Positions 19,545 through 35,337 of a DNA stretch of 60,740 nt are shown here, in pieces; the stretch's first letter is position 1; every line of letters starts with the position of its first letter. The stretch is from NCBI GenBank assembly GCA_026391215.1, contig JAPLDX010000133.1, positions 1 through 60,740 of the forward strand. The letters run 5' to 3'. The notes under the pieces are model-generated. The model had not been told where the DNA came from, searched no databases, and was given only the letters and a program-made list of their open reading frames with translations. The stretch comes from Bacteroidia bacterium. Lineage in GTDB: Bacteria; Bacteroidota; Bacteroidia; Bacteroidales; VadinHA17. The position numbers were made by a program, and so were the translations under genes.

Positions 19545-19612
19545 AATTCTATCGCTAAAATAACTGATTTTCTAATCAAATGAAGTATGATTTCAAAGTG
19601 ACGGTATAAAAT

Positions 19613-19644
19613 AGAAAACCCGGAACAAATATTCCGGGTATTCT
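19613..19644 (-). terminator. Terminator directly downstream of the tRNA-like fragment
   Basis: AGAAAACCCGGAA-loop-TTCCGGGTATTCT inverted repeat, U-rich tail on the minus strand. Confidence 0.65.
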
Positions 19645-19646
19645 TT

Positions 19647-19661
19647 GTGATCTAGCTGGGA
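19647..19661 (-). other. tRNA 3'-end-like fragment (Arg-like), probable att site at the left end of the element
   Basis: Minus strand reads TCCCAG-CTAGATC-AC, i.e. T-stem 3' strand, acceptor 3' strand and discriminator. The T-loop and the rest of the tRNA are absent. It is followed by a terminator and lies near an integrase. Confidence 0.55.
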
Positions 19662-19848
19662 CCCGCTTATTTATTTTATGATGATATCAAATGACTGTTA
19701 AAACCCTCAGTATTACAGCTATTTATAAAAATAAGGTTTATCATGAGTTATCAAAATAGCTCACAATGTTAATAAATTTCTTGCCCTGATTCTTCCCCGT
19801 ATTATATTTTATTTAATTTTGCTCTATTGATAAATTAAAACTATTGTT

Positions 19849-20415
19849 ATGGGAAAGAAAATAATGATTAATGAGGTTACAGCCTGGGATATATACTTTA
19901 AGCGAGCAAACAGGCTTAAGAAAGAATCACTGAGAGCCCATAGATCAGAGTTGTCTCCTATTAAAAGAAGACTTTATGCGAGTGATCATGAGCTTATGGG
20001 GTTAAAAAACGAATCTCAGAAATGGGATGAAAGACTTCGATGCAGGAAGGAATTGTCAGATGAAGAAGAAAAAGATTTCCAGTTTTATCTGGAAAAGAAA
20101 AGACTGTTGAAACCCATAATAATCAGACTGATAATGAGTTCTAAACAAAGTGTTATCAGTAAACTACTACATGAATTTCAAGATTATGGATTAGATATCC
20201 ATCAGCTGCTGCTCAATCATAATCCTTCATTAATGGAACGCAAGGATTATAATGCTGAGATAAACCGGCTGAAAAAAGAAATAGCATATTATAAAGAGCG
20301 CGAAACACAGCATTTTAAAATAATGGATCTTCAATATTCTGTGATGATGCAGAAAAGATGCAGCAAGGAGGACCCACTTCCGACGCATCTTAAGGTTGTA
20401 ACAATCGAAGGATAA
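19849..20415 (+). CDS. Hypothetical protein (element-borne, helical/coiled-coil)
   Basis: 188-aa ORF preceded by a TAATTTTG promoter box at 19814-19821 and 8 bp from the integrase. Confidence 0.55.
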   Translation: MGKKIMINEVTAWDIYFKRANRLKKESLRAHRSELSPIKRRLYASDHELMGLKNESQKWDERLRCRKELSDEEEKDFQFYLEKKRLLKPIIIRLIMSSKQSVISKLLHEFQDYGLDIHQLLLNHNPSLMERKDYNAEINRLKKEIAYYKERETQHFKIMDLQYSVMMQKRCSKEDPLPTHLKVVTIEG

Positions 20416-20423
20416 CTTAATTT

Positions 20424-21782
20424 ATGGCAATCAGTGTAATTTTTAAGCTCAAAGAGCCTCAGGCAGGAGTCTCTCCAGGAGACCAAAAGGAGACTCCTGT
20501 TAACCTTTTTTTCAATTATGGCTATTATGTCATTACCAGGGACGGGAAAAAGAAATACACCCCATTAAAATTCGCAACCGGTGAAAAAATAAAACCATGC
20601 TACTGGAAGGACCGGCCGGTTTACCGTGCAAAACAAGTTAAGGAAATTGATTATCAAAGCTTCAATACTATCCTGGACAATATTGAAGGCGCAGCGAAAA
20701 AGGTTTTCAGGAACGAGAGAGCTGCTAACCAGCTACCGACGCCGGATCAGCTCCGGGATCTTCTTAAAAAGGAGCTTAACCTTATTCCGGAGCTGGCAAA
20801 TCCACAAAGAGAATCTTTAAATGAATTTATTGACCGCTTTAACAAAGAAATCGAATCAGGATCGAGACAGACAAAGGGAAGAAAGAAACATAGATATACA
20901 CCCGGGACAGTAAAAAATTATAAATCTTTTAAAAACCAGTTCGACGCATATCAAAAAAGTAAAGGTACGAAGCTGGATTTTAATGATATAGATATGTCAT
21001 TCTATAACGAATTTGTTAATTATTTTACAGAAAAGAAGCAATCTCCAAATAATATTGGTAAGCAGGTCAAATGTCTTAAGGTAATTATGAGGGCTGCCCT
21101 GACAGAAACTCCTCCGCTTCATTCAAATAATGATATTAACGACAAGGATTTTGTTACCCTCAGAGAACCTGCAGAGGAAATATATCTGAATGTTTCTGAG
21201 ATTGAAAAGCTTGAAAATCTGAATCTTTCATATAATAAACACTTAGACAAAATCAGAGATGTATTTTTAATCGGAGTTTACACTGCTCAAAGATTTTCTG
21301 ATTATTCAAGGATCCGGAAAGAGAATATCAGGACCCTTCAATCAGGAACTAAAGTAATTGATCTTAAACAGCAAAAAACAAAAGAGGGAGTTATTATTCC
21401 CATAATGCCTAAACTGGATTCGATCTTAATGAAGTACAATTACAGCATTCCCCGAACCTATGATCAAAAGGTCAATAAATACATTAAAGAAATCGCGAAG
21501 GATGCCGGCATTACTGAAATGATTCCTGTTAAAAGGATCCAGGGGGGACTGGAGATTGAAAAGGACTATCCAAAATATAAGCTGATAAAAACACATACAG
21601 CCCGGAGATCCGGGGCGACTAATATGTATCTGGCCGGGATCCCGACTGTTGATATCATGAAATTGACCGGTCACCTGAATGAATCAGGGTTTTTAAAATA
21701 TATTAAAGTCGGGAAGGAAGAGACAGCTGATAATCTCTCCAAGCATCCTTATTTTAATACTCACCTTAAAGTTGCGAAGTGA
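20424..21782 (+). CDS. Tyrosine integrase (Bacteroidota arm-binding + SAM-like + catalytic domains)
   Basis: TAQRFSD (R), QQKT (K), THTARR (HxxR), TGH, FLKYI (Y). Confidence 0.93.
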   Translation: MAISVIFKLKEPQAGVSPGDQKETPVNLFFNYGYYVITRDGKKKYTPLKFATGEKIKPCYWKDRPVYRAKQVKEIDYQSFNTILDNIEGAAKKVFRNERAANQLPTPDQLRDLLKKELNLIPELANPQRESLNEFIDRFNKEIESGSRQTKGRKKHRYTPGTVKNYKSFKNQFDAYQKSKGTKLDFNDIDMSFYNEFVNYFTEKKQSPNNIGKQVKCLKVIMRAALTETPPLHSNNDINDKDFVTLREPAEEIYLNVSEIEKLENLNLSYNKHLDKIRDVFLIGVYTAQRFSDYSRIRKENIRTLQSGTKVIDLKQQKTKEGVIIPIMPKLDSILMKYNYSIPRTYDQKVNKYIKEIAKDAGITEMIPVKRIQGGLEIEKDYPKYKLIKTHTARRSGATNMYLAGIPTVDIMKLTGHLNESGFLKYIKVGKEETADNLSKHPYFNTHLKVAK

Positions 21783-22645
21783 TGAATGAACTAGAAAAAG
21801 ATGCATTTGACTGGAAGGCATTTCTTGAAAAGCTTTCTGATTTTAAGGACGAGGAGGAACAATTAATGTTTTTTTCGGAAGCCAGAGAAAAATATAAAGA
21901 AGAAATCCCGGATTTTACTAACCAGTTTTGGTCAGAGCTAAAGGATATCAGCTTTCAATGTGAAAGAGAAGAATATTACAATGAACCGGATGTTTATCAT
22001 GATGATTTCAGACAACATACATTTGAATCTAACTTTGGTATTCCACTGGGAGAGCTAGATGAGTTTACGCGATATGAGATTACAACCGAACTATATCAGA
22101 TGTTTAAATGGGCTGATAACAAGAACCATAAACATTTTATGAAAATGACAAGGCTCTGGGTTGATGGGGTTGATTTTGTAGAAACAAATACCCAGGCCTG
22201 GTCAGTCAAAGACAGATTATTCTTATTAAGGACGATTGTAAATTTTAGGGTACTTCCTGAGATTGACCTTCAGAATGATATAAAGAATTATTCGCGCTAT
22301 TGTGATGAGTTTGGGGCAGGAGGGGAAAGGTTAAGCAAATTGTTAAGTATAATTATGAACACACCCGCGACTAGTATTGAAAAGTGTTTACCACAGATGA
22401 AAAAATATCTTGATTTTAAAGGATTAGATGATTCAATTAAAAAAGAACAAGAGAGAGCTGTCGCAGGAATATGGGCGAACAGGCTTAGGAGAATAACCAA
22501 TATATTTGACAGGCTGACTGCAAGTGCTAAGTATAGTAAAAAGAGCACTGATATCAGTGCTAATTATTCAAATGCTAAAAAGTACCTTGAGAAATTAAAT
22601 GATGCTTATGAGTACTATTTTGGCCCTAACGAGAAAAAAAAATAA
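21779..22645 (+). CDS. Hypothetical protein between integrase and Xis-like gene
   Basis: 288-aa ORF overlapping the integrase stop; no motif recognised. Confidence 0.6.
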   Translation: MMNELEKDAFDWKAFLEKLSDFKDEEEQLMFFSEAREKYKEEIPDFTNQFWSELKDISFQCEREEYYNEPDVYHDDFRQHTFESNFGIPLGELDEFTRYEITTELYQMFKWADNKNHKHFMKMTRLWVDGVDFVETNTQAWSVKDRLFLLRTIVNFRVLPEIDLQNDIKNYSRYCDEFGAGGERLSKLLSIIMNTPATSIEKCLPQMKKYLDFKGLDDSIKKEQERAVAGIWANRLRRITNIFDRLTASAKYSKKSTDISANYSNAKKYLEKLNDAYEYYFGPNEKKK

Positions 22646-22715
22646 TAAAAGGTGCAACACCTATTCGTTTATTAATTGCTCATATGTGAAATTTGCATGA
22701 GTAAACTTAATATTC

Positions 22716-23006
22716 ATGCAAAACGCTGTTTTACTTGAGAATGTTACCAGGGAGGAACTGATTCGCGACATCAGGGCCCTGGTATCTGAAATAATCGATC
22801 AAAAGCTTCAGCCCGAACCTCAAAAGGATTTTCTTACTAAAAAAGAGGTTTCGGCCATGCTTCGCATTTCCCTTCCTACATTACAACGGATGACTCAGTC
22901 CGGATCCATTACAGGCTACCGGATGGGGCGTCGCATCCTGTACCGGGCCGCAGAGGTTGACAATGCCCTCAAAACCATTGAAACAATCAAATACAAGCGG
23001 AACTAA
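22716..23006 (+). CDS. Excisionase-like HTH_17 protein
   Basis: FLTKKEVSAMLRISLPTLQRMTQSG.ITGYRMGRRILY. Confidence 0.88.
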   Translation: MQNAVLLENVTREELIRDIRALVSEIIDQKLQPEPQKDFLTKKEVSAMLRISLPTLQRMTQSGSITGYRMGRRILYRAAEVDNALKTIETIKYKRN

Positions 23007-23479
23007 TGGCACACACTTACGACACCCGGACCGACAAGAGGATCCCGCTCCCTGGCAGCCGCGAATACTCAGTGAGAATCGAGTTCAAAAAAGTAGTTAA
23101 TCAGATTATATTCCCCTGCAAACTTTCTCCGTTTGAGGAAATTGGCAAAATCGACAGTACTAAAATTCAAACATTCCGGGCCCTCCTGGACACTGGATCC
23201 GTTGATATCTGTATCACAGAACAGACAGCGAAAAAGCTGCAGCTCACTTCAATTGGAACGAGAGAGAGTTTCGGATCTACCGGATCCTGTAAGAAAAACA
23301 TTTATGTAATCAACCTTCATTTACCCTGGGGAATTACTATGCCTATTGAAGTTATGGAATCTGCTGATCATGCTGATTTTGACCTGATTATCGGAATGAA
23401 CATTATTTCAAAGGGAGAGCTTTATATCATCAATTCTTGCAATAAAACAACTGTTCAATTTAAGCAACTTTTTCTATAA
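23006..23479 (+). CDS. Retropepsin-like aspartic protease
   Basis: RALLDTGS catalytic motif and DLIIGMNII C-terminal motif. Confidence 0.82.
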   Translation: MAHTYDTRTDKRIPLPGSREYSVRIEFKKVVNQIIFPCKLSPFEEIGKIDSTKIQTFRALLDTGSVDICITEQTAKKLQLTSIGTRESFGSTGSCKKNIYVINLHLPWGITMPIEVMESADHADFDLIIGMNIISKGELYIINSCNKTTVQFKQLFL

Positions 23480-23480
23480 A

Positions 23481-25040
23481 ATGGCTTACGGACTCAAATA
23501 TGAACTTTTATGCACCTCAAAGCTGGGGAATGCTTACAAGCTGAAGCTTCTGTTTGACGGGTATGAAGGATCTGAAGTTGACCGGAACGTACCTGCCTCC
23601 CCTTTTATTTTGAAAAAAGATAGCGCAGCTGTAATCAACGGCACGTCATTGCAGTTTTCGATTCGTGAAGAGGTTGATTTTGAGCTTTTAGAGTTCTATA
23701 CCGGCAACTCTAAGCACATTAAAGCTGAGTTGTATAAAAGCACAACGATGATATGGACAGGATATGTGCTTTCACAGCAGTACCAGGCTCCATATGTTCC
23801 GGCATCACGGAAGCCAGCAATCACTTTTACGGCTGCAGACGGGCTGGGGATCCTTAAAAATGAGGAGTTCACTCTTACCGGCAACAAGTCCCAGCTGGAA
23901 ATAATAATGCACTGCATTGATAAGATCGGTTTAGGCCTGGGTTACTCTATTGCCATAGATCTGTATGAGGAGCATCACAATGAAACATATTCTCCCCTGG
24001 CACAAACTTACGAAGATGCTTCTATTTATGAAGAATTCAACTGTTATGAAGTGCTGGAAAAGATGCTGGAAAAATACTACGCTGAGATATCTCAGTGTAA
24101 TTGCCGTTGGCGGATAGTATCTAAAACCGACAAGAAAAGCATTCCAAAGCTCTATACCTATGCCGGTGTTTATGAATCCGCCGGATCGACTCCGACTGTT
24201 CTTGACCTGGGATATCCTGATGTTTCAGGTACGGATGTATGGCCGATAGGATCCCTGCAGCATGGAATACAATCAGGAGGAAAGAAAGTTAAGATCAGTC
24301 ATGATTTTGGACTAAAGCCTTCGTTCCTTAGTAATTACAATTTCTTAAATTATTCAGGTAGTGCTTTTGAAAGCTGGACGAAAAGCGGCAGTTTTGATAT
24401 CTTACAGAAGTGGTTAAATGGCAAGCCGTATGCTTTTCTTGACGGGTATTCAAATGTATATACAGACTATATCCAGCAATCCATACAGCTGGTTAATACT
24501 TCCGGTGATGATTTTGTTGTGGAATTTGAATTTGCACCGATTGCCCGTGTTGTTCATGGACCCGGAGACATAACCGGCATTGTGGATACAAATGTTGAAG
24601 TGCTTGTTTATATCTGGGATGGCGGTACCGGCTACCGGTATCTTACGAAAACGGGATGGAGCACTGATTTCGGACATCTTGAAGAGGCCGTGTGTTCTTC
24701 AATATCACAACCTACCTGGAATAAATTAAGAGTATTTACATCAGAACTTCCTTTTGCCTCATGTACTTTGTTTGTGCGTTTATTCCGGCTTCATAGCAGC
24801 GGTCCGTTAGAAAACCAGACGCTTACCGGTATGGCCTATTCTAATATCTGGTGTTATCCTTTGCATTTAAACGAAAATTATCCCAGCAAAATTGAGGTTA
24901 CGGCATCATTTGATAACAGTACCGAGTCTCTAAAACTGTCCGACATAGATGTCTTTACAGCTGATGCACCTGATTATGACAATGCGGGTTTTATGTATAA
25001 AAATATCACAAAACTAAGCGACGGTACACCAACTCAGTAA
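23481..25040 (+). CDS. Siphophage tail-tip/minor tail-like structural protein
   Basis: MAYGLKYE..., WTGYV..QQYQAPY, ITFTAADGLGILK and NCYEVLEKML resemble the protein that follows the tape measure in Bacteroidota siphophages (recognition from memory, unsearched). Confidence 0.6.
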   Translation: MAYGLKYELLCTSKLGNAYKLKLLFDGYEGSEVDRNVPASPFILKKDSAAVINGTSLQFSIREEVDFELLEFYTGNSKHIKAELYKSTTMIWTGYVLSQQYQAPYVPASRKPAITFTAADGLGILKNEEFTLTGNKSQLEIIMHCIDKIGLGLGYSIAIDLYEEHHNETYSPLAQTYEDASIYEEFNCYEVLEKMLEKYYAEISQCNCRWRIVSKTDKKSIPKLYTYAGVYESAGSTPTVLDLGYPDVSGTDVWPIGSLQHGIQSGGKKVKISHDFGLKPSFLSNYNFLNYSGSAFESWTKSGSFDILQKWLNGKPYAFLDGYSNVYTDYIQQSIQLVNTSGDDFVVEFEFAPIARVVHGPGDITGIVDTNVEVLVYIWDGGTGYRYLTKTGWSTDFGHLEEAVCSSISQPTWNKLRVFTSELPFASCTLFVRLFRLHSSGPLENQTLTGMAYSNIWCYPLHLNENYPSKIEVTASFDNSTESLKLSDIDVFTADAPDYDNAGFMYKNITKLSDGTPTQ

Positions 25041-25098
25041 CATTGGAACAAGACATTAATGACATAATCACAAAAATAAAATAAAGAAAATTAACGAT

Positions 25099-25407
25099 AT
25101 GGAAACGCCCGAATATTTAACGTTACGCAATGATCAAAAGGTTCGTATTGAATTAAATATGAACTCTATAGGATCATTTACCGCTCTGACCGGGAAAGAA
25201 TTTTTTGAACTTGCTGAAGGCCCTAAGGATGTAAACTCCATACGGACACTGGCCTGGTGTGCAGTTGTAGAGGGAGAAGCCTGTGAGGGGAGTGAACTTA
25301 AAATGACAGAACTCGAATTTGGCCGGCAGATGGGCTTGAAGCAAATGAAGGACTTCTTTCAGATTTTTGGCAGGCTGGTTAGCTCTAGTGTGGAAAAAAA
25401 AAGCTAG
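25099..25407 (+). CDS. Tail assembly chaperone (gpG-like)
   Basis: ~100-aa acidic ORF ending GAA AAA AAA AGC TAG, directly upstream of the TMP. Confidence 0.75.
   Translation: METPEYLTLRNDQKVRIELNMNSIGSFTALTGKEFFELAEGPKDVNSIRTLAWCAVVEGEACEGSELKMTELEFGRQMGLKQMKDFFQIFGRLVSSSVEKKS
25393..25403 (+). other. -1 programmed frameshift slippery site (A AAA AAA)
   Basis: The -1 frame is open from the A9 run through 31 codons into the ATG at 25497. Confidence 0.75.
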
Positions 25408-25496
25408 CAGCTAGAGCAAGATCCATCGCGGCCGGAGAACAGTTAGAAGATAAGGATCACAAAGTAAAGACTAATAAAGTTATAACATACGCAGAG

Positions 25497-25829
25497 ATGA
25501 GAGAGATAGCACTTGGAAGGCTCCTGTACACGCCGGCACGTTTCGGATCAATGCTGGTCGGAGATTTCCTTGATGCTCTTTCAGGGTATATTGAAGGGGA
25601 GAACAACCGTATGCGAAGCATTGCAGAACTGATAAGAACCGCTACAACAATTCTGTGGAACAAGCAAATAGGAAAAGAAAATGTTTTACCAGCTGAACAG
25701 TTATGGAGATTTCCCTGGGATAGTGCAAATATCGAAACAGAGGAGCTGGGTGAAGAGTCTTTGAAAGAAAGAGAAAAGATCCAGGAAACACAGACTAAGT
25801 TCTTAATGGATAATTTCCCCGACACCTGA
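25497..25829 (+). CDS. Tail assembly chaperone gpT-like part (expressed as a G-T fusion)
   Basis: LLYTPARFGSMLVGDFLDALSGY..R....LWRFPWD; in the -1 frame relative to the upstream ORF. Confidence 0.7.
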   Translation: MREIALGRLLYTPARFGSMLVGDFLDALSGYIEGENNRMRSIAELIRTATTILWNKQIGKENVLPAEQLWRFPWDSANIETEELGEESLKEREKIQETQTKFLMDNFPDT

Positions 25830-25842
25830 AAAATAAAGAAAA

Positions 25843-27450
25843 ATGGGAGAAGTAATTTCAAACCTGAAAGCCCGTTTCAGTGTAGAAAACTCAGACTTTA
25901 GAAAAGGATTGTCTGAAAATGAGAGAGCTTTAAATGACCTGGATAGAAAGGTATGGAAAAGTGTTGATGCATTTAAAGCCATGTTTACCCCGCTGGCTTT
26001 ATTGGCAGGTGTGGGCGGTGCGTTTGCCCTGCTAAAGAAATCAATCAACGAGGTTGAAGGTCCGGCCGACAGGTTTGAAGCTGTAATAGGAGGCGGTAAA
26101 GAGGCTTTGTTTGAGTTTCAGAGAGCCTTGGGATCCATGGACTTCTCAAACTTTTTCCAAAACCTGGCCGAAGGTTTTGAACGTGGTAAGCAATTCACCG
26201 AAGCTTTAGACGAACTGGCCGACAAGGCTGCCTATAATGACTATAAGATTGCATCATTGACCCGGGAATCTAACGCCCTGCAGGAGATTGCAAAAGACAA
26301 AACAAAAGAGCTTAAGGTCCGGGCTGACGCTGCTGAAAAAATATTAGCGATTGAAGAAAAGATAAAGGATCGTAAAGCGGAACTGGCAAACGAGGAATAT
26401 GATATCGTTAAAAAACAATGGGAGTCGAGAAATAAAATGGAGGCAGATGAGGCTGTCAAACTCTATGAGACTATTGACAACCTTTCTGAAGATGTAAAGG
26501 CCAAACTTGATAAAGCATTCGACTGGCAAATCGGTTTGTTTGGAACCAAACAGGGCACAGAAAATATTGTAAGCGGGCAAAGTGCCGCCGGTATGTTAGC
26601 CGGCATACCCCAAGATGTAATTAAATCCTATGCTGATTATCTCAATCTTATTGATAAAGGCGAAAAGGATGTTCTGATCAAATTGTTCAACTCCGCCAAA
26701 GATTTCGAAGAAAAAATATCACAGGCCCAGGAGAGATATAACGGCATCGTGGCTCAGACAACCCGGCTCCTGCCAGCTGAAGATAAGCAACTGAACAAAA
26801 ATCTGCAAACCACAAAACAACTTAACAAGGAAAGAGAGCTGGATCTCATTAAACGAGCTTCCACAAGTAATATTCAATTACCTGACTTTAAATATGATTT
26901 ATCCGGGTTAAATGAACTTAAGCAAGTCTATATACCCTTGGTTAAAGAGCTGGGTGAAGTGGAGAAACAGATTAATGGGATCATTGAAAGAGCTGCGGAA
27001 AATATGCTTGTTGGTTTCGGGGAATGGCTTGGAGCGTTTTCGGTGGGAATGGCAGGATTCCGGGATCTTCGCCAGATGGTGGGGAATGCTTTCGGTGACA
27101 TGCTGATCCAGCTTGGCACTGTAGCAATAGAGGCGGGAGTAGGTATCAAAGCAATAAAAACGGCTTTTGAATCAATGAATCCTGCTGTCGCAATTGCTGC
27201 GGGGATCGCGTTGATTGCATTTGGAAGTGCAATCAAAAATTCAATTTCAAAGATTAATGCAGACAGAGCAGAGGCAGCAAGTGCATCTGGCTCAGGAGAA
27301 TCGAACAAATTTATTTACGATACCCGTGGTACAGGATCGGCGAGTGTTCAGCCCCAGACAATAATAATTACCGGCAAGCTGAAAGCCGAAGGCTCCGACC
27401 TGGTTTATGTTTTCAATCAGGAATCAATGCGTAGAGATATAGTTACATGA
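25843..27450 (+). CDS. Short tape measure protein (535 aa)
   Basis: N-terminal NLKARFSVENSDFRKGL, long helical Ala/Gly-rich body, hydrophobic AIAAGIALIAFG, C-terminal ITGKLKAEGSDLVYV; follows the G/GT chaperones. Confidence 0.75.
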   Translation: MGEVISNLKARFSVENSDFRKGLSENERALNDLDRKVWKSVDAFKAMFTPLALLAGVGGAFALLKKSINEVEGPADRFEAVIGGGKEALFEFQRALGSMDFSNFFQNLAEGFERGKQFTEALDELADKAAYNDYKIASLTRESNALQEIAKDKTKELKVRADAAEKILAIEEKIKDRKAELANEEYDIVKKQWESRNKMEADEAVKLYETIDNLSEDVKAKLDKAFDWQIGLFGTKQGTENIVSGQSAAGMLAGIPQDVIKSYADYLNLIDKGEKDVLIKLFNSAKDFEEKISQAQERYNGIVAQTTRLLPAEDKQLNKNLQTTKQLNKERELDLIKRASTSNIQLPDFKYDLSGLNELKQVYIPLVKELGEVEKQINGIIERAAENMLVGFGEWLGAFSVGMAGFRDLRQMVGNAFGDMLIQLGTVAIEAGVGIKAIKTAFESMNPAVAIAAGIALIAFGSAIKNSISKINADRAEAASASGSGESNKFIYDTRGTGSASVQPQTIIITGKLKAEGSDLVYVFNQESMRRDIVT

Positions 27451-27475
27451 CAACAAAAATAAAGAAGCAATTACT

Positions 27476-28279: not shown

Positions 28280-28307
28280 ATTTTTAAATACTCAAATACT
28301 TAAAATC

Positions 28308-29420
28308 ATGAAACACAAACTCTTTATCCTGGATATCATAAACAAATCTCTAAGAGGTGAAAAATATGATATGGACGAACTTGAGCTAATGGACATTGCC
28401 AGAAGAAACCTTAATACCTGTGGCCTCTTGAAAAAGTTGCGGGATGACAAGCTAACATGTCTGATTCCATTAAACATATCAGATGGGGATGATAGATACC
28501 TGTACGGCCGCTTAAATCGTGATATCGATACGGAACAATACCTGTTAGGTCGCAAACCAATGTATGTTATCAATCCTATTACTGATGTTAGTGTTTTTGC
28601 CCTGGCGGGGGCTAAATTTTTTCAGTTAGGAATGGACGCAATTAAGATCCCATCATTCAGTAATATAATGGCCAGCTGGGTAGATGACGGGGACGAGCCT
28701 GCAGACGACGGTGATGAGATTACAATCGGAGGTGCAACCTTTGTCCCAAAACGGATATTCGTTTGCCTTGATATTCCGACTAAAATGATCCTTCAGGGAG
28801 GTCCGGAAATTGAGAAGTGGCTTGGTGATAATATAACAGCAGCTATTGCCGCTAAGGTTGATGCAACAATAGGGGGACTAACCGCATCCTCTGCCAGCAA
28901 ACCACAGGGGATGGGATATGCCATAACTACCGGTCTTGATACCAAGGAAAATGCAGTTGTACCTGATCTTGATGATCTTGTGGCCATGGAAGAAGCAGTA
29001 GCGGATCTGAGAGTTCCAATAGAGAACTTTGCCTGGATAACAAACGGTGTTGGAAGAAGGATCCTTCGAAAAACACCATATTCAGTTGATGAAAATAATT
29101 ATGCTTATCAGAAAGGCAAAGTGCTTGATGCCCCTGCCTTTTTTTCAAATCTTATTCCCGTTGGAGCCGGTGCAGACAGTAACGGTACACCGCTTTATTA
29201 CGGAAACTGGAAAGACCTTGGTATTATTCAGTTCGGTGCATATGAGATTATAGCAGATCCGTATACTCTTAAAAAGCAGAGTATAATTCAATTGAACGTA
29301 AGTACCTGGTTCGATTTTAAAGGGCTCAGGGGCAGTTCTCCGACTGATGCTAAGAACGGGACAACCCAGGATAATGATTATGCCTTCAGTTTTACCAGCA
29401 AAGCTATAAAGAGCGCGTAG
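28308..29420 (+). CDS. HK97-fold major capsid protein
   Basis: ASWVDDGDEP, TFVPKR, MILQGGPEIEKWLGDNI..AIA..VD, PQG, YGNWKDL..QFG.YEIIADPYT. Confidence 0.85.
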   Translation: MKHKLFILDIINKSLRGEKYDMDELELMDIARRNLNTCGLLKKLRDDKLTCLIPLNISDGDDRYLYGRLNRDIDTEQYLLGRKPMYVINPITDVSVFALAGAKFFQLGMDAIKIPSFSNIMASWVDDGDEPADDGDEITIGGATFVPKRIFVCLDIPTKMILQGGPEIEKWLGDNITAAIAAKVDATIGGLTASSASKPQGMGYAITTGLDTKENAVVPDLDDLVAMEEAVADLRVPIENFAWITNGVGRRILRKTPYSVDENNYAYQKGKVLDAPAFFSNLIPVGAGADSNGTPLYYGNWKDLGIIQFGAYEIIADPYTLKKQSIIQLNVSTWFDFKGLRGSSPTDAKNGTTQDNDYAFSFTSKAIKSA

Positions 29421-29470
29421 CTTAATTACGTGTACGGGTGTTAATAATCAATAATTTAAACTATAATTCA

Positions 29471-30076
29471 ATGACACAATTAAAACCGTTTTCAGGATTC
29501 GAAGCCCAAATGTCAGGAGCCTTTGGCGACTTTTATATTGGCCACGCAGCTGCAGTTACCACAAAAAAGTTTTCTCATATCGTTGTAGGAGAGAGCGGAG
29601 CGACTTTAACTGATGTTAAGATACGGGGTGTTTCTGTTAAAGCCGCCCGTGCTTATCCAAATGTAATGCCTGCGGGTTATCCGATGTGCGCCGGGGGCAA
29701 TGACTATTTCGATTCAATCGAATTATCTGCCGGCGACGCCCAGGGATTCTTCTTTGAAGAACCAGTAACCCCTGTCGCTTCCGCGGTAGCTGTTGAAAAT
29801 GGAGTTGCAGAAGCTGCCATGGCGCCTGTTATCACTTTCGACAACGCGGGCTTGAGCGGCAGTAAAGATATTCGCTACCGGCTAAAAGACAGTGATGGAG
29901 AGATAGTGAGCAGTGGAACGCGTACTATTTACTTTCTCAACGGGGAAGATGTGACAGTGATCATACCGGGACTAACATACCCCGAGACGATTGCCGAAGA
30001 TTATACTTTCGAAATAAACCTGGGCGACGGCGAAGCATGGGTGGCCGGTGCAGCATTTGATGTTACGGCGGAATAA
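29471..30076 (+). CDS. Putative capsid decoration/structural protein with an Ig-like C-terminal domain
   Basis: Directly after the MCP; two beta-rich halves joined by EEPVTP. ATG at 29471 is preferred over the GTG at 29438. Confidence 0.45.
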   Translation: MTQLKPFSGFEAQMSGAFGDFYIGHAAAVTTKKFSHIVVGESGATLTDVKIRGVSVKAARAYPNVMPAGYPMCAGGNDYFDSIELSAGDAQGFFFEEPVTPVASAVAVENGVAEAAMAPVITFDNAGLSGSKDIRYRLKDSDGEIVSSGTRTIYFLNGEDVTVIIPGLTYPETIAEDYTFEINLGDGEAWVAGAAFDVTAE

Positions 30077-30094
30077 TGCTTAACAATCATAAGA

Positions 30095-30233
30095 TGCAGG
30101 GGTTTTCATTCGTTTTTCAAGGGCGGACTTTTCCCCTGCAGCCTTGCTTTCTTAATGTTCATTTTGGAAGGGCTGTTCGGGGATCTTCAATGTATATCGT
30201 CTTCATTGATTTTCCCTGTAACAGCCTTCTTTT
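30095..30233 (+). other. Two tandem long RNA hairpins after the structural operon
   Basis: TGCAGGGG...CCCCTGCA (30095-30140) and GAAGGGCTGTT..TCAATG/CATTGA..AACAGCCTTC (30167-30229) followed by TTTT. Confidence 0.55.
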
Positions 30234-30250
30234 AAGATCAAAAATGAATT

Positions 30251-30478
30251 ATGATGAGTGAGTTACATGATAAAATAGTAATCGAGTTGACCCCATGGGA
30301 GGCCGAACAATTGAACAAGGGTTTAAAATACCTGGTTGATTGTCATATCTGCAATCCGGAGAATGTTAAAAGGATCCCGGATGAAAGTCTTAAAGCCGTT
30401 TCCTGGATAATTACTTTCCGGATCAACACACTGAATAAGGATCATTACATCGGAAAGACAAAAGTTCATACCCGGTAA
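30251..30478 (+). CDS. Hypothetical small protein
   Basis: 75-aa ORF with a CHIC motif, co-oriented in the replication module. Confidence 0.45.
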   Translation: MMSELHDKIVIELTPWEAEQLNKGLKYLVDCHICNPENVKRIPDESLKAVSWIITFRINTLNKDHYIGKTKVHTR

Positions 30479-30489
30479 TCATTCTAAGG

Positions 30490-30651
30490 ATGCTTGACAA
30501 GGTTAAAATAGCTGGGAAAGAGTATTATTCAATAGAGCTCTTTATGATCATTGCGGGCCTGAGGTCCCGGAGATCTGTTTATGCCTGGGTTGACCAGGGT
30601 AAGGCTGAAAAAAAGAAAATCGGAAGTAATTCATTCTTTGCAAAACTGTAA
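30490..30651 (+). CDS. Small HTH protein (AlpA/Xis-like), missed by the ORF track
   Basis: Manual translation: MLDKVKIAGKEYYSIELFMIIAGLRSRRSVYAWVDQGKAEKKKIGSNSFFAKL (53 aa), just upstream of Rep. Confidence 0.6.
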   Translation: MLDKVKIAGKEYYSIELFMIIAGLRSRRSVYAWVDQGKAEKKKIGSNSFFAKL

Positions 30652-30701
30652 TTTTTTTATTCCGTAAAAGCACAATGTGTGCAGTGTAAATTAATTAGTT
30701 A

Positions 30702-31595
30702 ATGAAGGATAGTAAAACATATAAATTTAATGGATTTGAACAGATAAAAGCCTTTTTCAGCTGGATAGCAAATAATCCGGATAAATTAAAATCCAGTCAT
30801 ATCAGCCTTTATTTCTACATTTTCAATCAGGCAAATATAGCCATGTGGAGATCATTCCCCTGCTCTCATATTGAAGCTATGAAAGCAGCCGGGATAGGGA
30901 ATAAAGGTACTTATTACAAGTGTCTGGACAATCTTCGAGAATGGAATTTAATTGAATATAAAAAGGGTTTAAACATTTATAAGTATCCATTAATAAATCT
31001 TATTTACTTGTCCGAAAATGGACAACTAAAAGAGGGTTACTTGTCCGAAAATGAACCTGACAAGTCCGAAAATGGACAACTAAAAGAAGGTTACTTGTCC
31101 GAAAATGGACAACTAAAAGGATGTAAAGTATCTAAAAATGAACACAATGAGCAAAACACATTAAAAAATGATTTTACACCTTCTTATAACAATAACAATA
31201 TAACAAAGAAGAATGTAACAAGTGACATTCTACCCTCCCCTGAAAATTTTTTAAATGATTCAGATTTAACTAAAGAAATAAATCCTGCTGAAATTCTTTA
31301 TGATGAAATAACACAATTTTTTCCGGAAGATCTCCGGCCCAAAACTCAAAAACAGAAATCCGCCTGGATCGACACCTTGGACAAACTTATGAGAATTGAC
31401 GGACATTCCGCGGAAGAGATTAAAAAAGTGATCAGGAAAACCAGGGAAAATGATTTTTGGAAATCAAATTTTCTCTCAGTATTGAAGCTCAGAAAAAAAA
31501 ATAAAGAGGAAATCTTTTATTACACTGTTTTTAAAAACATTAACAGTCCAGAACCTGAGCGAAGAATTAAAAAGGTGAACGATCTTTGGAAATAA
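30702..31595 (+). CDS. Phage-type replication initiator (wHTH N-terminus, replisome-organizer-like C-terminus)
   Basis: SSHISLYFYI..N...W, GIGNKGTYYKCLDNL..WNLI, internal repeats, C-terminal DKLMRIDG..DFWKSNFLSVLKLRKK. Confidence 0.75.
   Translation: MKDSKTYKFNGFEQIKAFFSWIANNPDKLKSSHISLYFYIFNQANIAMWRSFPCSHIEAMKAAGIGNKGTYYKCLDNLREWNLIEYKKGLNIYKYPLINLIYLSENGQLKEGYLSENEPDKSENGQLKEGYLSENGQLKGCKVSKNEHNEQNTLKNDFTPSYNNNNITKKNVTSDILPSPENFLNDSDLTKEINPAEILYDEITQFFPEDLRPKTQKQKSAWIDTLDKLMRIDGHSAEEIKKVIRKTRENDFWKSNFLSVLKLRKKNKEEIFYYTVFKNINSPEPERRIKKVNDLWK
31004..31145 (+). repeat. Iteron-like direct repeats (TTACTTGTCCGAAAATGGACAACTAAAAG) inside the rep gene; probable origin
   Basis: Copies at 31004, 31037 (partial), 31064 and 31091 plus a degenerate one near 31128. 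Full copies contain TTGTCC-N6-GGACAA. An AT-rich tract follows. Confidence 0.75.
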
Positions 31596-31632
31596 TTTAA
31601 AGTGTTAATTATTAATCAATTATAAAACAATC

Positions 31633-31884
31633 ATGGCAAAGAAAAAACAAATAGTGACAACAACCGATGAGATCGCATGTTTCATTGTCAACTTGCTGCA
31701 TGGCATTGCGCATGATTCCGGCAAGGTGATGCGGGTAAAGGGAATGAGATCCATAAAAAAAGCGTATGTAAAATTAATTGAAAGAGGTGCGCTCTCTACA
31801 GCCGTCGAAGAATACCAGGAGACCATGGCCCTTCAGTATGAATTAGATATCATGGCAAAATCAAAACAGGATGAACACCGATAA
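31633..31884 (+). CDS. Hypothetical protein
   Basis: 83-aa ORF overlapping the next recombinase gene. Confidence 0.5.
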   Translation: MAKKKQIVTTTDEIACFIVNLLHGIAHDSGKVMRVKGMRSIKKAYVKLIERGALSTAVEEYQETMALQYELDIMAKSKQDEHR

Positions 31885-32833
31885 ACCTATTCTGCAGCTG
31901 GTAGATGAATTCCTGGCAGATCTTGAAAAAGCTGAAGGGACAAGGAATCTTTACAGAAAGACCCTGCAGTACTGGATAACCTGGTCAACAAAAAACGATT
32001 GTGATATCAAGGACCTGACACGGGCCGATCTCATAAATTATAAAAGCTTCCTGACAAGATCCGGAAGGTCCGCGGCAACCGTGGATAGTTATGGAAGCGC
32101 AATAAGAAAGTTTCTTTCCTGGTTAGTTGAAATGGGGTATCTGACAAGAAATCCGGCTGAGGGATTACAATGGCAAAGGGACCGGCAAGGAACATTTATC
32201 AAGCAGGCATTGACACTGAAAGAGGTAGATAAACTATTGAAGGTCCATAACCAGAATACACCGGTAAGCAAGCGTAACTATGCTATGATCGATCTCATGA
32301 GTTTCACGGGGCTCAGGTGCATTGAAGTAACCAGGCTTAACATTGGCGATGTAAAGAGAGCTGCTAACCGCTGGCACCTTCAGGTATGGAGAAAAGGAAG
32401 CAAGGAAAGAGGCGGGACCATAAACGTACCTTATGACAGGATAAAACCGATTCGGGAATACTGGAAGTACAGATCAGGGACACTGTCAGATGATCAGCCG
32501 GTATTTGTCAATCATTCTCCCAGGAGCAATAACACCCGGCTGACACCGGCCTGCATATCAAGGATCATCAAAGGATCCCTGAGAAAGATCGGACTGGATT
32601 CTAACAGGTACACTGCTCACAGTCTCAGACATACAGCCGCTACACTTGCTTACTATGCCGGCAGTGAATACTTTGAGATAGGTCAAATGTTAGGACATTC
32701 AAGTCCGCGACAAACAGAACATTATATTCATGCGTTAGGAGTCGGGTCCACGCTCCAGGGTAGAGCAACTATGAAAATCAATGAATATGTTCAGAAACAC
32801 AAAAAGAACAGGCCAAAACGTAAACAATCCTGA
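31871..32833 (+). CDS. Second tyrosine recombinase (XerC/D-like, no arm-binding domain)
   Basis: SAM-like N-terminus, TGLRCIEV, RKGSK, HSLRH, LGHSS, TEHY. Confidence 0.9.
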   Translation: MNTDKPILQLVDEFLADLEKAEGTRNLYRKTLQYWITWSTKNDCDIKDLTRADLINYKSFLTRSGRSAATVDSYGSAIRKFLSWLVEMGYLTRNPAEGLQWQRDRQGTFIKQALTLKEVDKLLKVHNQNTPVSKRNYAMIDLMSFTGLRCIEVTRLNIGDVKRAANRWHLQVWRKGSKERGGTINVPYDRIKPIREYWKYRSGTLSDDQPVFVNHSPRSNNTRLTPACISRIIKGSLRKIGLDSNRYTAHSLRHTAATLAYYAGSEYFEIGQMLGHSSPRQTEHYIHALGVGSTLQGRATMKINEYVQKHKKNRPKRKQS

Positions 32834-32928
32834 TAGTTTTAAGTCTTAATGGTCATAATCCTATATGATTATTAGCATTGAAAGAAAATGAACGAGATGA
32901 GAAAAGTGATATCCCCGGCCGGAATATT

Positions 32929-33075
32929 GTCAAAACTCTATATCTGCCTGATAATCAGTCAAATTTCAGTCAGGGGTATAGGGGGGGGTAAATCTCACGG
33001 GCGAAAGTCGCTGAGACCGTTAGTCCCGTTAGTCCCGTCAATCGGTGCCGCTGTCAAAATTCAAGGTAGGGGTAT
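32929..33075 (+). other. cos-like packaging-site region
   Basis: G8 run followed by TAAATCTC...GACCG, flanked by direct repeats GTCAAATTTCAGTCAGGGGTAT (32958-32979) and GTCAAAATTCAAGGTAGGGGTAT (33053-33075). Confidence 0.5.
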
Positions 33076-33117
33076 TAACATTATATCAATCTAATTACTA
33101 AAACAACTATAGAAATC

Positions 33118-33534
33118 ATGAAACTAGAAATTCAAAAAACAGAAAAAAGAAAGATTACATTTGATTACAAGACAATCAAAATCTTTGAAGATGCCTGTAA
33201 AAAGCTGAGCATAGATCCTTTAAAACTTCCGGACCTGAACGGGATCCCGGAGGAATTTCACAAACCGATCATCGCCGGGTATAAGCTGATGATAGTTTAT
33301 AAAGCTATTAATAACGGATGGCGCCCGGACTGGAGCAACTGGAGCCAGTATAAATATTATCCCTGGTTCAGGGTCTCTTCGTCCGGGTTCGGTTTCGCGA
33401 ATTCGTATTACAACTACGATATCGCGATTGCGCACGTCGGTTTCCGCCTTTGCACTAACACTTCAGAAAAGGCACTGTATATAGGCGAACAGTTCAAGGA
33501 CCTTTACCAGGATTATTTCCTGTATTCAGAATAA
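33118..33534 (+). CDS. Phage protein resembling Bacteroidota DGR targets, with a C-terminal variable-region-like segment
   Basis: IKIFEDAC, PDWSNWSQYKYYPWF, SSGFGF.NSYYNYD....VGFRLC. Codons 33355-33462 include none ending in A. Confidence 0.65.
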   Translation: MKLEIQKTEKRKITFDYKTIKIFEDACKKLSIDPLKLPDLNGIPEEFHKPIIAGYKLMIVYKAINNGWRPDWSNWSQYKYYPWFRVSSSGFGFANSYYNYDIAIAHVGFRLCTNTSEKALYIGEQFKDLYQDYFLYSE

Positions 33535-33867
33535 ATAAAAGCCATGGGCGCAAAATTGCCCCGGTTGACCAGGACAAGGATCCCCGGGTTCAGGGAGCAA
33601 CTCCACTGGTAAGATCCTGAATCATCAGGCCCGGGAATCATATTTAACTCCCGCAGCTGGGGACACCGATCAGTATCCCGGAGCTGCAGGACAGTGATAT
33701 CATACCAGGAAAGGATCTCTGGCCAGCGGACCAGCGATCAGGCCGGTACCGGTTAACCAGGTCAGGATACTGAAGCTGATAAAAACAGCATAAAACTATT
33801 TTTTCCAAGAATTGTTGATAAATTTGCGCCTTCGTACTATCTTTGATTAAATAGTAAATACTGTCTT

Positions 33868-34257
33868 ATGCCGAAAAATCAAACAATATCCGGAGAATGG
33901 ATCAGCGGCAAAAATAAAATTGAATGCATTTTGCCTCTAATTATTTTTGAAGATGATAACAATATTATCGCTTTTTGCCCGGCTTTAGATATTAGCGGTT
34001 ATGGATCTACAGAAGCAGCGGCCGATGAGTCTTTTAAGGAAACCCTTTCTGAGTATTTCCGATATACAGTTAATAAAAAGACTCTTGCTGAAGATCTTCG
34101 TAAGCTTGGATGGACTATAAGGAAAAATCTGAAAAAAGAACCGATACCGCCAACAATGGAAAATCTTCTACAGAATAATGAAGATTTTAACAGGATCTTC
34201 AATACCTACGATTTTCAGAAAAGAAATACCACGATTAAAATCCCAGCCCTGGCTTAA
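33868..34257 (+). CDS. HicB-like antitoxin
   Basis: IAFCPALDISGYGSTEAAA..SFKETL partial RNase H fold; TAAATTTG promoter box at 33819. Confidence 0.7.
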   Translation: MPKNQTISGEWISGKNKIECILPLIIFEDDNNIIAFCPALDISGYGSTEAAADESFKETLSEYFRYTVNKKTLAEDLRKLGWTIRKNLKKEPIPPTMENLLQNNEDFNRIFNTYDFQKRNTTIKIPALA

Positions 34258-34496
34258 TGACTCCGTCCATTAAGAATGTCAGCGTAGAAGATTATAAATC
34301 CTTCCTTTCGCACCACGGATTAAAAAATATACGTACATCTAAGGGACACGAAGTATGGTGCGGGGCCAAACTTACCAGGCCTGTTATTTTTCAAACACAT
34401 ATTGATCCTATTCCTCTGTTCATTATCAAGAGCAATCTCAGGACAATGGGGCTCACATTAAATGATTTACGGGACTATTTAAATTCAAAAAATTAA
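34257..34496 (+). CDS. HicA-like mRNA interferase toxin
   Basis: 79 aa, FL..HG....RTSKGHEVW, PIPLFIIKSNLR; coupled to hicB through TAATG. Confidence 0.7.
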   Translation: MTPSIKNVSVEDYKSFLSHHGLKNIRTSKGHEVWCGAKLTRPVIFQTHIDPIPLFIIKSNLRTMGLTLNDLRDYLNSKN

Positions 34497-34522
34497 GAGT
34501 TATAAATGAAAGTCCTTACGGC

Positions 34523-35161
34523 TTACCGGGGTCCCTCTCCCACTTTAAATAGTAGTTCTTTTCTTAATTTCACTATTGTTTCAAGAGATTCAGTATATTC
34601 CGTCATATATAGGCGCACCTCTGTACGAAGTTTTCTTATTTCATTACAGGATCTAGTACATTCAATATTTGACTTTCTATCATTATGGAAACTTGAGTCA
34701 ATAAAACTGTAGTAACCTTTTTTTGTTATTATTAAGTGATCATCGATATTTATATCGAGCTTTTCTCCAATAATTCTGATTTGTTCCGTTACAACTTTAT
34801 CAGAATTGGAGGGTTCAGGGGATTCTGAAGGATGATTGTGAGCGACTATTATTGAGCTTGCCCGGCAAACAAGAGCACATGAGAATAAAAATTGATAATC
34901 AATTGTGGTAGAGTTAAGTTTTCCGGTAGAGATAACCCTGAATCCCAAGGCTTCAAGCTGAGCGTTTAAGAATAATGCACAAAATTGCTCCTGAATATTA
35001 ATAAGTGAATCATCCCACATTTTAAGAAAGATCCGATAAGCAATATCTGGGCTGGTAACTGAAATACAATCTTTTGGTTTTTTACAGTAATGTACTTTTA
35101 ATTCAGCAACAGACCAATCTTTTACCGAATTAACTTTTTCAATAAAAACTTTCCTTTTCAT
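34523..35161 (-). CDS. RadC-like JAB-domain protein
   Basis: EQFCALFLN, HNHPS..PS.SD, DDHLII. Confidence 0.88.
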   Translation of the reverse strand: MKRKVFIEKVNSVKDWSVAELKVHYCKKPKDCISVTSPDIAYRIFLKMWDDSLINIQEQFCALFLNAQLEALGFRVISTGKLNSTTIDYQFLFSCALVCRASSIIVAHNHPSESPEPSNSDKVVTEQIRIIGEKLDINIDDHLIITKKGYYSFIDSSFHNDRKSNIECTRSCNEIRKLRTEVRLYMTEYTESLETIVKLRKELLFKVGEGPR

Positions 35162-35337
35162 AATATAAAACTTATATTGGTATCCAACATAATTTATATA
35201 AAATGTACCTATTCTGTACCTTCAGTAGCGCAATTAACCATTAGATGCAAATCCTTACTTTCTGTATTGGAAAGTAACGATACTTTGCTCTGTTTTGCTT
35301 CTCTCTAAGGATTAGAATGTTTTTACTAAACATAGCT

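Follow-up and report, generated by a model that had tools for sequence, protein, structure and literature searches.

The window analysed here is the whole of contig JAPLDX010000133.1 (C119; 60,740 bp), one of the 135 contigs of the 3.39-Mb, 98.9% complete assembly GCA_026391215.1 of a Bacteroidia bacterium. Between about 19647 and 35230 it carries a compact element in which structural genes of a tailed phage stand beside genes for integration and replication, and which, as argued below, is probably an integrated phage satellite. From 19849 to 34712, every sizeable open reading frame (ORF) lies on the plus strand, and the genes are tightly packed. The ORFs of the window were annotated with the Pfam, PHROGs and NCBIfam families. 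An earlier reading made from the letters alone (the sequence-only reading) had named an integrase, an Xis, a tail-tip protein, the chaperones G and GT, a tape measure, a prohead protease, a major capsid protein (MCP), a Rep with repeats and a second recombinase, and each of these classes was recovered where it had been placed, all on the plus strand.

Structural, integration and replication genes

By annotation, the element encodes a predicted tail-initiation set made up of a tail tip, G and GT chaperones, a tape measure and an accessory protein. The first of these genes (23481-25040, plus strand) specifies a protein of 519 amino acids (aa) that, from its homology and predicted fold, is called a short-form Dit-like tail-tip protein, a putative Dit or hub. 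It has 44 database homologues, mostly longer (600-900 aa), and its N-terminal part matches both a protein of Flavobacterium phage 11b and a protein encoded directly 3' of the tape measure in Cellulophaga phage phi39:1, the latter annotated in its database record as a virion component by tandem mass spectrometry (MS/MS) proteomics. In more than 50 phage contigs, a homologue comes right after the tape measure. The predicted structure (predicted local distance difference test, pLDDT, 88.6) has a C-terminal jelly roll resembling carbohydrate-binding modules, and its fold matches phage structural and minor tail proteins as well as chains of the lambda tail-tip complex, while neither the tape measure nor the tail-tip profile found a significant sequence match in the PDB. 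When complete ORFs only are compared, as in all length comparisons here, the tail-tip proteins of the small elements described below are the shortest, at 503-533 aa (519 aa in the window, with 632 aa in the element L142), against a median of 851 aa for the 71 complete ORFs of all fetched loci.

The tail assembly chaperones follow at 25099-25829 (plus strand), with G at 25099-25407 (102 aa) and GT read through a -1 frame that is open at 25389-25829 (T ORF of 110 aa). The G ORF ends in GTG GAA AAA AAA AGC TAG, with a slippery run of nine A at 25394-25402, and the intact ORFs and preserved frameshift signal that the sequence-only reading had described are both present. Among 35 distinct phage G/T pairs, all have the T homologue in the -1 frame overlapping G, and 33 have a poly-A heptamer within the last 75 nt of G, which ties the slip site to the phage family. 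Next comes the tape measure (25843-27450, plus strand; 535 aa), whose homologues sit between T and the tail-tip gene in phage loci; over residues 380-447 it matches the protein annotated as tape measure in phi39:1, and coiled-coil and hydrophobic Gly/Ala-rich segments can be read from the translation. Tape measures of phage loci have a median length of 514 aa (n = 13 under a strict filter, range 374-561), with 561 aa in the related phage G431, and those of the small elements measure 519, 523, 535 and 559 aa. The sequence-only reading had assigned the element a module that sets tail length, for which these lengths give no support; since the tape measure is as long as those of phages, tail length would not be reset. 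Finally, a 212-aa protein encoded at 29438-30076 (plus strand) is a probable tail-tip accessory protein, its phage homologues lying 1-5 kb downstream of the tail-tip gene; the Protein Atlas holds no match to it.

An HK97 capsid shell, consisting of an MCP and a maturation protease, is likewise predicted by annotation. The prohead serine protease of HK97 type (27476-28279, plus strand; 267 aa) has a weak match to Pfam S78 and matches to phrog_11321 (2e-10) and phrog_617, and is about 50-56% identical to the proteases of the phage family. The HK97-fold MCP (28308-29420, plus strand) matches PF05065 (6e-8), TIGR01554 and phrog_617 (3e-19), and at 370 aa it is short compared with a median of 424 aa for 44 ORFs. 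By the same annotation, the element appears to be without terminase, portal, head-tail connectors, tail tube and lysis genes. No Pfam, PHROG or NCBIfam match to a terminase, portal, connector or tube was found among the ORFs of the window, and tblastn of TerL, portal, four connectors and tube of phage G431 against the whole assembly gave no match, in agreement with what the sequence-only reading had found missing. Annotation of the element revealed no lysis genes, and within the element the same three collections gave no match to repressor or primase families.

Annotation further predicts that the element can integrate and excise, as it encodes a tyrosine integrase (20424-21782, plus strand; 452 aa; PF13102 3e-12, PF00589 2e-9) and an HTH_17 DNA-binding protein of AlpA/Xis-like type (22716-23006, plus strand; PF12728 1e-9). 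Copies of the integrase occur at 58-63% identity in L055, L060 and L065. A 188-aa ORF without a match in Pfam, PHROGs or NCBIfam lies immediately upstream of the integrase (19849-20415, plus strand), and a 288-aa protein encoded just downstream (21779-22645, plus strand) occurs only in small elements, with 26-78% identity in L044, L055, L065 and L168, three matches in one further search, and just unnamed Bacteroidota clusters in the Protein Atlas. Replication as a circle is also predicted, from a Rep initiator of O-like/DnaD-like type (30702-31595, plus strand; PHROGs) with four direct repeats inside its gene (30977-31143). Three small ORFs of 61, 75 and 53 aa precede Rep (30076-30651, plus strand), the 75- and 53-aa ORFs being kept in other small elements. 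Downstream, at 31633-32833 (plus strand), an 83-aa ORF is followed by a second tyrosine recombinase identified by family search (XerC/D-like, 320 aa, 31871-32833), with copies 36-63% identical in L168, L169, L055, L142, G584, G674 and G410.

Between the Xis-like gene and the tail tip lies a gene for a retropepsin-like aspartic protease (23006-23479, plus strand; 157 aa) with a single domain, an Asp-Thr-Gly motif and a weak match to PF13650 (3e-5). From its distribution it is a hallmark of the small elements: it is present in three of 117 loci that carry the tail tip, all three satellite-like, and not in phage G431. It matches L055 at 4e-11, and Asp-Thr-Gly is unchanged in all five copies compared. 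The protein (window 23006-23479; L055 265-1194; L168, L169 and L196) has a single domain in the window and in L044 and tandem domains (309-320 aa) in four other elements, a difference that parallels the dimer and pseudo-dimer forms of aspartic proteases. A database protein of 445 aa (P0050) has an aspartic-protease domain fused to a tail-tip homologue. Matches to the aspartic protease in G491, G490, G402 and G412 were left uncounted, with no other satellite genes near them.

Related phages and related small elements

Using an alignment of tail-tip homologues (A2), 117 loci were fetched, made up of 80 of 109 metagenome loci and 37 viral loci, and scored by blastp with the window proteins. The tape measure has a homologue in 101 of these loci, T in 71, G in 58, the prohead protease in 55 and the MCP in 51, and the phage loci invariably run from the protease and MCP across about 2.6 kb to G, T, tape measure and tail tip. 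The gene order of the window, in which the tail tip comes before the chaperones and the protease and MCP after the tape measure, thus differs from the canonical order kept by related full phages, as the sequence-only reading had held. Eight viral contigs with the tail-tip locus are 34-38 kb long. Among the phages, G431 (34,167 bp, linear, CheckV completeness 47%) encodes the head genes TerL (PF03354, PF20441), portal (PF04860), protease, MCP, adaptor and connectors, followed by a 144-aa protein at the position of the tube, G, T, a tape measure, a tail tip of 637 aa, further tail-tip proteins and an integrase. By tblastn of all its proteins against the whole assembly, identity to the window's proteins amounts to 56% for the protease, 41% for G, 37% for T, 56% for the tail tip, 59% for the 212-aa protein (G431 g21556), 56% over 107 residues for Rep and 21% for the MCP. 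Full phages of the related family were also seen in the genomes G581 and G584 (contigs G581:C47 and G584:C323). The 15.5-kb record MT835917 was considered as a further small element and set aside, since it is a piece of an ordinary phage in which TerL and portal are present.

At least seven small elements, about 11-15 kb in size, share a backbone of integrase, Xis, Rep, second recombinase and aspartic protease, and the subset and order of structural genes differ in each. None of the listed small elements has a homologue of TerL or portal. L044, a 2.5-kb fragment, has the same gene order as the window for the 288-aa protein, Xis, the aspartic protease and the tail tip, at 71-83% identity. The sequence-only reading had proposed a search for small circles, and one such relative came to light: L054 carries an exact terminal repeat of 127 bp, and L055, from another sample, is its circular permutation at 99.8-100% identity, so that the two represent a predicted circle of 13.5 kb. 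No MCP is encoded on this circle; its genes specify an aspartic protease with two domains, an integrase, a 288-like protein and Xis, a tail tip of 533 aa and a tape measure of 519 aa, and also a protease, a Rep region and the second recombinase. L142, a 12.3-kb IMG/VR contig, has an integrase, tail tip, MCP, G-like protein, DnaB helicase and second recombinase. In G546, a 288-like protein, Xis, protease, MCP (45%), tape measure, tail tip, Rep, second recombinase (63%) and aspartic protease are found; and G492 and the small element of G584 both have an integrase, tail tip, protease, Rep, second recombinase and aspartic protease, to which the G584 element, spread over three contigs, adds an MCP. 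The related prophage of G584 (C323) has a tail tip 68% and a protease 66% identical to those of the small element in the same genome. G674 and G410 contain fragments only. Genome searches covered 349 genomes of the family with the tail-tip protein and 212 genomes of the genus with profiles of the aspartic protease and MCP; satellite-like elements occur in six of the 212, the window's genome included. The recurrence that the sequence-only reading had proposed to look for stands for the backbone, which is found in other species and in metagenomes, and does not extend to the gene set and order, which are not conserved.

The capsid and tail-tip genes appear to have had different histories. The MCP is about 21-22% identical to MCPs of the phage family, versus about 50-56% for the protease and tail tip, and an MCP tree of 54 rows groups the copies of the window, G546 and L142 with all eight database homologues in a single clade (support 99), separate from 43 phage-context MCPs. 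A locus scan with the single MCP found nothing in genome or viral contigs, an MCP alignment (A1) found nothing in metagenome or genome contigs and only distant ordinary phages in viral contigs (23-29% identity), and a search of 401 class-level genomes found only G330, a complete canonical prophage. The tail-tip tree (69 rows; quick IQ-TREE with SH-aLRT support only) was labelled by counting as phage those rows with a tape measure directly upstream, a rule under which short contigs such as L035 are possibly mislabelled. In it, the window copy falls into a well-supported clade with six phage-context copies, the G546 copy groups with two phage copies and the L142 copy with one, and G492 and L054/L055 form a separate clade; satellite copies hence sit at at least three places among phage copies, and the label needs at least three changes. 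From these trees, the capsid gene looks like an old, separately inherited gene, and the tail-tip genes look as if they had been repeatedly exchanged with phages. Comparison with L044 gave ratios of non-synonymous to synonymous substitution rates (dN/dS) of 0.095 for the tail tip (269 codons), 0.157 for the aspartic protease, 0.217 (0.22) for the 288-aa protein and 0.27 for the Xis-like protein, values indicating purifying selection on these four genes, with the MCP and tape measure outside the comparison.

The 17,022-bp contig G571:C92 (taken whole as locus L192) carries a Rep-like gene, TerL, portal and a 473-aa MCP, which is nearer to the satellite-type MCP (36%) than to the helper-family MCP (25%). 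It may represent the phage group behind the satellite MCP lineage, or a capsid-forming type of element.

Flanks, right arm and a second element

The non-coding left arm (19647-19848, no strand) is a probable attachment or regulatory region, and its positions 19738-19827 share 77% identity (blastn) with non-coding DNA upstream of the integrase-proximal ORF in the circular relative L055. At 19618-19639, a bidirectional terminator-like hairpin separates the host gene for a short-chain dehydrogenase/reductase (SDR) from the left arm; a relative in sequencing run X5 has another hairpin at this position, and its DNA matches from 19646 on. The left flank holds ordinary host genes of Bacteroidota type, including the SDR dehydrogenase (18705-19544), DUF4252 proteins and a sigma factor, and the right flank holds a methyltransferase, a truncated N-terminus of a TonB receptor and an epimerase. 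The apparently truncated gene is a 247-aa ORF at 36334-37077, to the right of the element, with only the CarboxypepD_reg and Plug domains of a TonB-dependent receptor. Synteny of the flank with four related genomes stops at the SDR gene, and the empty site can therefore not be reconstructed. No tRNA gene was found in the window, and no Rfam family matched within 19400-36400.

The 68-aa ORF at 32888-33094 (plus strand) is the last stretch common to a second element of the same assembly. As that element seemingly ends just past its homologue of this ORF, the arm from 33.1 to 35.2 kb may be a separate insert, or else cargo. It begins with a 138-aa ORF (33118-33534, plus strand) related by homology to the variable (target) proteins of a diversity-generating retroelement in phage G431. 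Besides a template repeat, this retroelement (L158, 12584-14658) has a gene for reverse transcriptase (phrog_1423, 1e-123) and two paralogous targets. Of the 25 A positions of the template, 18 are changed in the repeat of one target and 13 in that of the other, against one of the 57 other positions in each. The 138-aa ORF is 38-50% identical to the G431 targets, and its variable part (33346-33473) differs from the G431 template at 14 of 25 A positions and 5 of 57 others, an A-biased pattern linking the element with the phage family of G431. Neither a reverse transcriptase nor a copy of the template was found in the window or the whole assembly, and the ORF is an orphan target, not a retroelement, which may have come from a phage or may be diversified by a helper in trans. 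A satellite-like fragment in G410 has a copy 48% identical to it, and the structural model of the protein is poor (pLDDT 47 from a 4-row alignment). The ORF had also been considered as a small terminase, with homologues upstream of TerL in G431; this was rejected, as these homologues are the retroelement targets adjoining the reverse transcriptase.

Directly after this ORF follows a GC-rich, structured non-coding stretch of 256 nt (33535-33790, no strand; 57% GC versus 40% for the element). Its predicted fold has a free energy of -97.3 kcal/mol (z = -3.9), and none of 200 shuffles was equally stable; the stretch matches no Rfam family, and neither the rest of the assembly nor any fetched locus contains a copy. 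It could act as an RNA, or serve as a site of packaging or recombination, and it is the sole candidate for the cos-like site of the sequence-only reading, which was not confirmed. The remainder of the right arm (33868-35161) contains small ORFs of 129, 79 and 68 aa on the plus strand and a RadC/JAB gene on the minus strand (34523-35161), and its membership in the element is uncertain. Contigs assembled from the sequencing runs have break points near 35155-35196.

The second element is seen at two contig ends of the assembly (C131:23093-28409 in G000 and C85:1-195, taken as loci L202 and L203). The end of C131 carries mnmE, an HTH_17 gene, an integrase that differs from that of the window, a 261-aa ORF, a second HTH_17 gene, a tape measure of 559 aa that shares 82% identity with its G431 counterpart over 458 residues, an 80-aa ORF and the start of a protease gene, which has 95% nucleotide identity to window positions 27447-27733 up to the contig end. 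The first 195 nt of C85 are 93% identical to 32887-33090 of the window, followed by a glycoside hydrolase gene. Most simply, these ends belong to a second element of about 11 kb with a common core from the protease to the 68-aa ORF and another left arm, the core having been left unassembled or collapsed. Contigs (Logan) from three runs of one study, one of which is possibly the source of the assembly, cross the joins between the arms of the element and its core, X1 record 5 covering 27089-30213 and X2 record 14 covering 31090-33309. Two loose-end strings from the run contigs are absent from the assembly, and joints between these contigs, with sides of just 21 nt, were disregarded.

The satellite reading and known systems

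The stretch is best read, at a probability of about 0.7, as an integrated helper-dependent phage satellite of about 13-15.5 kb in a Bacteroidota genome, and it most likely belongs to an undescribed satellite family of this phylum. The relatives lend this reading good support, as they divide into canonical full phages and small elements that share the backbone without terminase or portal. In such a life cycle, a temperate HK97-like siphophage of the type of G431 or of the G581 and G584 prophages would develop in the same cell, and the element would excise and replicate, its second, Xer-like recombinase perhaps resolving multimers. The helper would supply terminase, portal, connectors, tube and lysis, while the element would build a capsid shell of its own, probably smaller and fitted to about 13-15 kb of DNA. 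With its own tail tip, it would form chimeric particles, with the satellite determining their specificity of adsorption, as suggested by the carbohydrate-binding-like domain of the short tail-tip protein. The tape measure may serve compatibility with the satellite's tail-tip complex, or help in escaping or causing interference, and the aspartic protease is a candidate factor that would process or disable a structural protein of the helper or the satellite. It could be speculated that a Bacteroidota-specific family, with this element as its first example, makes virions that are chimeric at both ends, re-aims its host range by swapping tail tips, uses the retropepsin-like protein as an interference or maturation factor and in some members has an orphan target diversified in trans, though this fuller picture is an improbable one when taken as a whole.

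Several observations weigh against the satellite reading. The assembly, despite its completeness, shows no helper: it contains no PF04860 and no PF03354, its sole PF05065 protein is the element's own MCP, and no helper turned up when the ORFs of 15 phage loci were compared with it. Packaging by a helper is something we infer, no small terminase, cos or pac site was recognised in the element, and the cos-type helper of the sequence-only reading was not borne out. No att sites were recognised: direct repeats linking the left junction with 32.8-36.4 kb are no longer than 10-12 nt, which is chance level, so that the ends at 19647 and 35230 are approximate, the right one being uncertain. Among the relatives, gene set and order vary, some lacking the MCP and some the tape measure; the L054/L055 circle speaks for an extrachromosomal or tandem state, not for packaging in a capsid; the viral collection yielded L142 as the only satellite-like contig; and the aspartic-protease alignment, run against IMG/VR, brought up no relative. 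The MCP lineage also reaches beyond small elements, as the MCP of G571:C92 (36% identity, outside the MCP tree) adjoins TerL and portal. Finally, contig depth in runs X1-X3 is about half that of the flank over 20.2-27.5 kb and flank-like over 27.5-32.8 kb, a weak hint, contig depth not being copy number, that fits two elements with a common core or a mixed population.

The alternative nearest to hand is a defective prophage, that is, a siphophage that underwent deletions and rearrangements and is now kept by chance or partly domesticated and immobile. All structural genes having homologues in full phages of one family, the lack of a helper in the assembly and the missing att sites would all fit such a remnant, yet the backbone recurs in other species at 26-63% protein identity with intact ORFs, one relative is circular in two samples, and the aspartic protease and 288-aa protein are missing from the phages examined. 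Nor does recent deletion explain an MCP that forms its own clade and is far more distant from the phage family than the protease and tail tip are. The sequence-only reading had named a unique arrangement, relaxed selection on structural genes, or unknown ORFs turning out to be portal or terminase as grounds for giving up a satellite; instead, the arrangement is not unique, four genes have dN/dS of 0.10-0.27, and no unknown ORF matches portal or terminase, and we regard the remnant as unlikely. A defence or interference island, in which structural genes act as decoys that poison phage assembly with little or no gain in transfer, has a precedent in satellite look-alikes of structural proteins that are known to interfere with helpers, such as those of PLE11 (as given in the available part of PMC12987554). 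The truncated tail tip (519 aa versus a median of 851 aa) and a protease specific to small elements would suit it, but the integration, excision and replication modules and the circular relative point to a mobile life cycle, and a full set of G/GT, tape measure and tail tip together with MCP and protease exceeds what a decoy needs. Interference and transfer are not exclusive, and the former is largely a sub-function of the satellite reading; as an explanation by itself, it seems quite unlikely.

Two further explanations have very little probability. Several ORFs without a family match (188, 288, 212 and 129 aa, and smaller ones) might hide the portal and terminase of an autonomous, very small tailed phage, these proteins being too diverged to recognise. 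However, the only two non-integrase ORFs above 400 aa are explained as tail tip and tape measure, tube and connector genes are missing as well, and TerL and portal of the related phages are easily recognised and have no homologue here. A wrong join of two elements or phage pieces during assembly is equally hard to credit: the second element does share the core from the protease to the 68-aa ORF, and C131 and C85 break exactly there, but the X1 and X2 contigs from the study of the likely source bridge both joins, which argues that the window is not a chimera, and L044, from another data set, keeps the order of 288-aa protein, Xis, aspartic protease and tail tip.

Known satellites differ from the element in various ways. 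P4 and the Staphylococcus aureus pathogenicity islands (SaPIs) reshape the helper's own MCP with scaffold-like proteins, whereas the element brings its own, distantly related MCP; it resembles them in being about 1/3 to 0.4 of the size of the related phage contigs (34-38 kb, possibly incomplete genomes), from which a fit to a smaller capsid, of lower triangulation number, may be supposed. The relatives without MCP (L054/L055 and G492) may work the way of P4 and SaPIs, through the protease or another factor. SaPI-like phage-inducible chromosomal islands (PICIs) have as their defining features a divergent master repressor beside the integrase, pri-rep, a small terminase and capsid-morphogenesis genes, while the genes of the window at 19849-34712 are co-oriented and show no family match to a repressor, primase or small terminase. 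P4-like elements are defined by Psu, Delta, Sid, the alpha primase-helicase and a cos site matching P2-like helpers; none of those families is among the Pfam, PHROGs and NCBIfam matches of the window, and the related phages are siphophage-like. Capsid-forming PICIs (cf-PICIs), as reportedly described by Alqurainy et al. in 2023, have a complete set of capsid and packaging genes except TerL, with portal, connectors and small terminase, and rely on a helper only for tails; they are also mentioned in PMC11389934 and PMC12987554. The element is like them in its own HK97 MCP and prohead protease, a regulator of AlpA/HTH_17 type, a replication module and an integrative character, and unlike them in having no recognised portal, connectors or small terminase and in having a tail tip, G/GT and tape measure. 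From a complete HK97-like temperate siphophage it differs by the lack of TerL, portal, connectors and tube and by its non-canonical order. Phages phi39:1, 11b, G431, G581:C47 and G584:C323 are akin to it as source or partner of its structural genes and share the poly-A slip site, yet the related Bacteroidota siphophages have TerL, portal, connectors, tube, a longer tail tip and more tail-tip proteins, and have neither the aspartic protease nor the 288-aa protein.

Satellites with tape measures have been described as well, which softens the claim of the sequence-only reading to a new type. The EPIPs of Mycolicibacterium encode an MCP and a tape measure, as the element does, and electron microscopy shows small capsids and altered tails, which are longer than those of the helper (PMC12822802, a bioRxiv preprint of December 2025, in its available part). 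The same part of PMC12822802 lists a serine integrase, small terminase, head-tail adaptor, stopper and scaffold for EPIPs, and does not list a tail-tip protein, G/GT or prohead protease. The element has tyrosine recombinases instead, no small terminase, adaptor or stopper was found in it, and the host of EPIPs is an actinobacterium. VEIMEs have no major capsid genes according to the available part of PMC9618062. In Vibrio cholerae, PLE11, one of the phage-inducible chromosomal island-like elements (PLEs), replaces the tape measure, tail assembly chaperone and baseplate hub of phage ICP1 with its own, which leads to chimeric tails (PMC12987554, Nature 2026, in its available part). PLEs are islands that respond to ICP1 and use RepA_N replication. 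A PLE protein blocks the phage tape measure while the PLE uses its own, which is 95 aa shorter than that of the helper and leads to shorter tails, and putative tape measure genes are noted in PLE-like elements and some cf-PICIs (PMC12987554, the latter in the legend of its Extended Data Fig. 10). Like PLE11, the element would combine tail-initiation proteins of its own with the helper's remaining tail and head parts. It differs in that the helper ICP1 is a myovirus and the host a gammaproteobacterium, in that PLEs have no MCP or prohead protease of their own, and in that the PLE tape measure is shortened and that of the window is of about phage length, the two being compared by function, not by sequence.

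No description of phage satellites in Bacteroidota was found by full-text searching of the literature, with supplements and subscription journals outside this coverage. Bacteroidota dominate guts, sediments and marine particles. If these elements are satellites, the replacement of tail initiation would extend from a Vibrio myovirus to siphophages of another phylum, and a capsid shell with a tail tip and without portal or terminase would be a combination unreported so far. The elements would also form a natural series of structural-gene subsets, making it testable which virion parts a parasite must own and which it can borrow. An MCP kept vertically versus tail-tip genes swapped repeatedly suggests how satellites track helpers and hosts, and the aspartic protease and the orphan retroelement target would be new leads for the conflict between satellite and helper and for changes of host range. 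Placed among known systems, the element fails the defining features of PICIs, cf-PICIs, P4-like elements and EPIPs, and by analogy it would work most like a PLE at the tail and most like a cf-PICI at the capsid shell.

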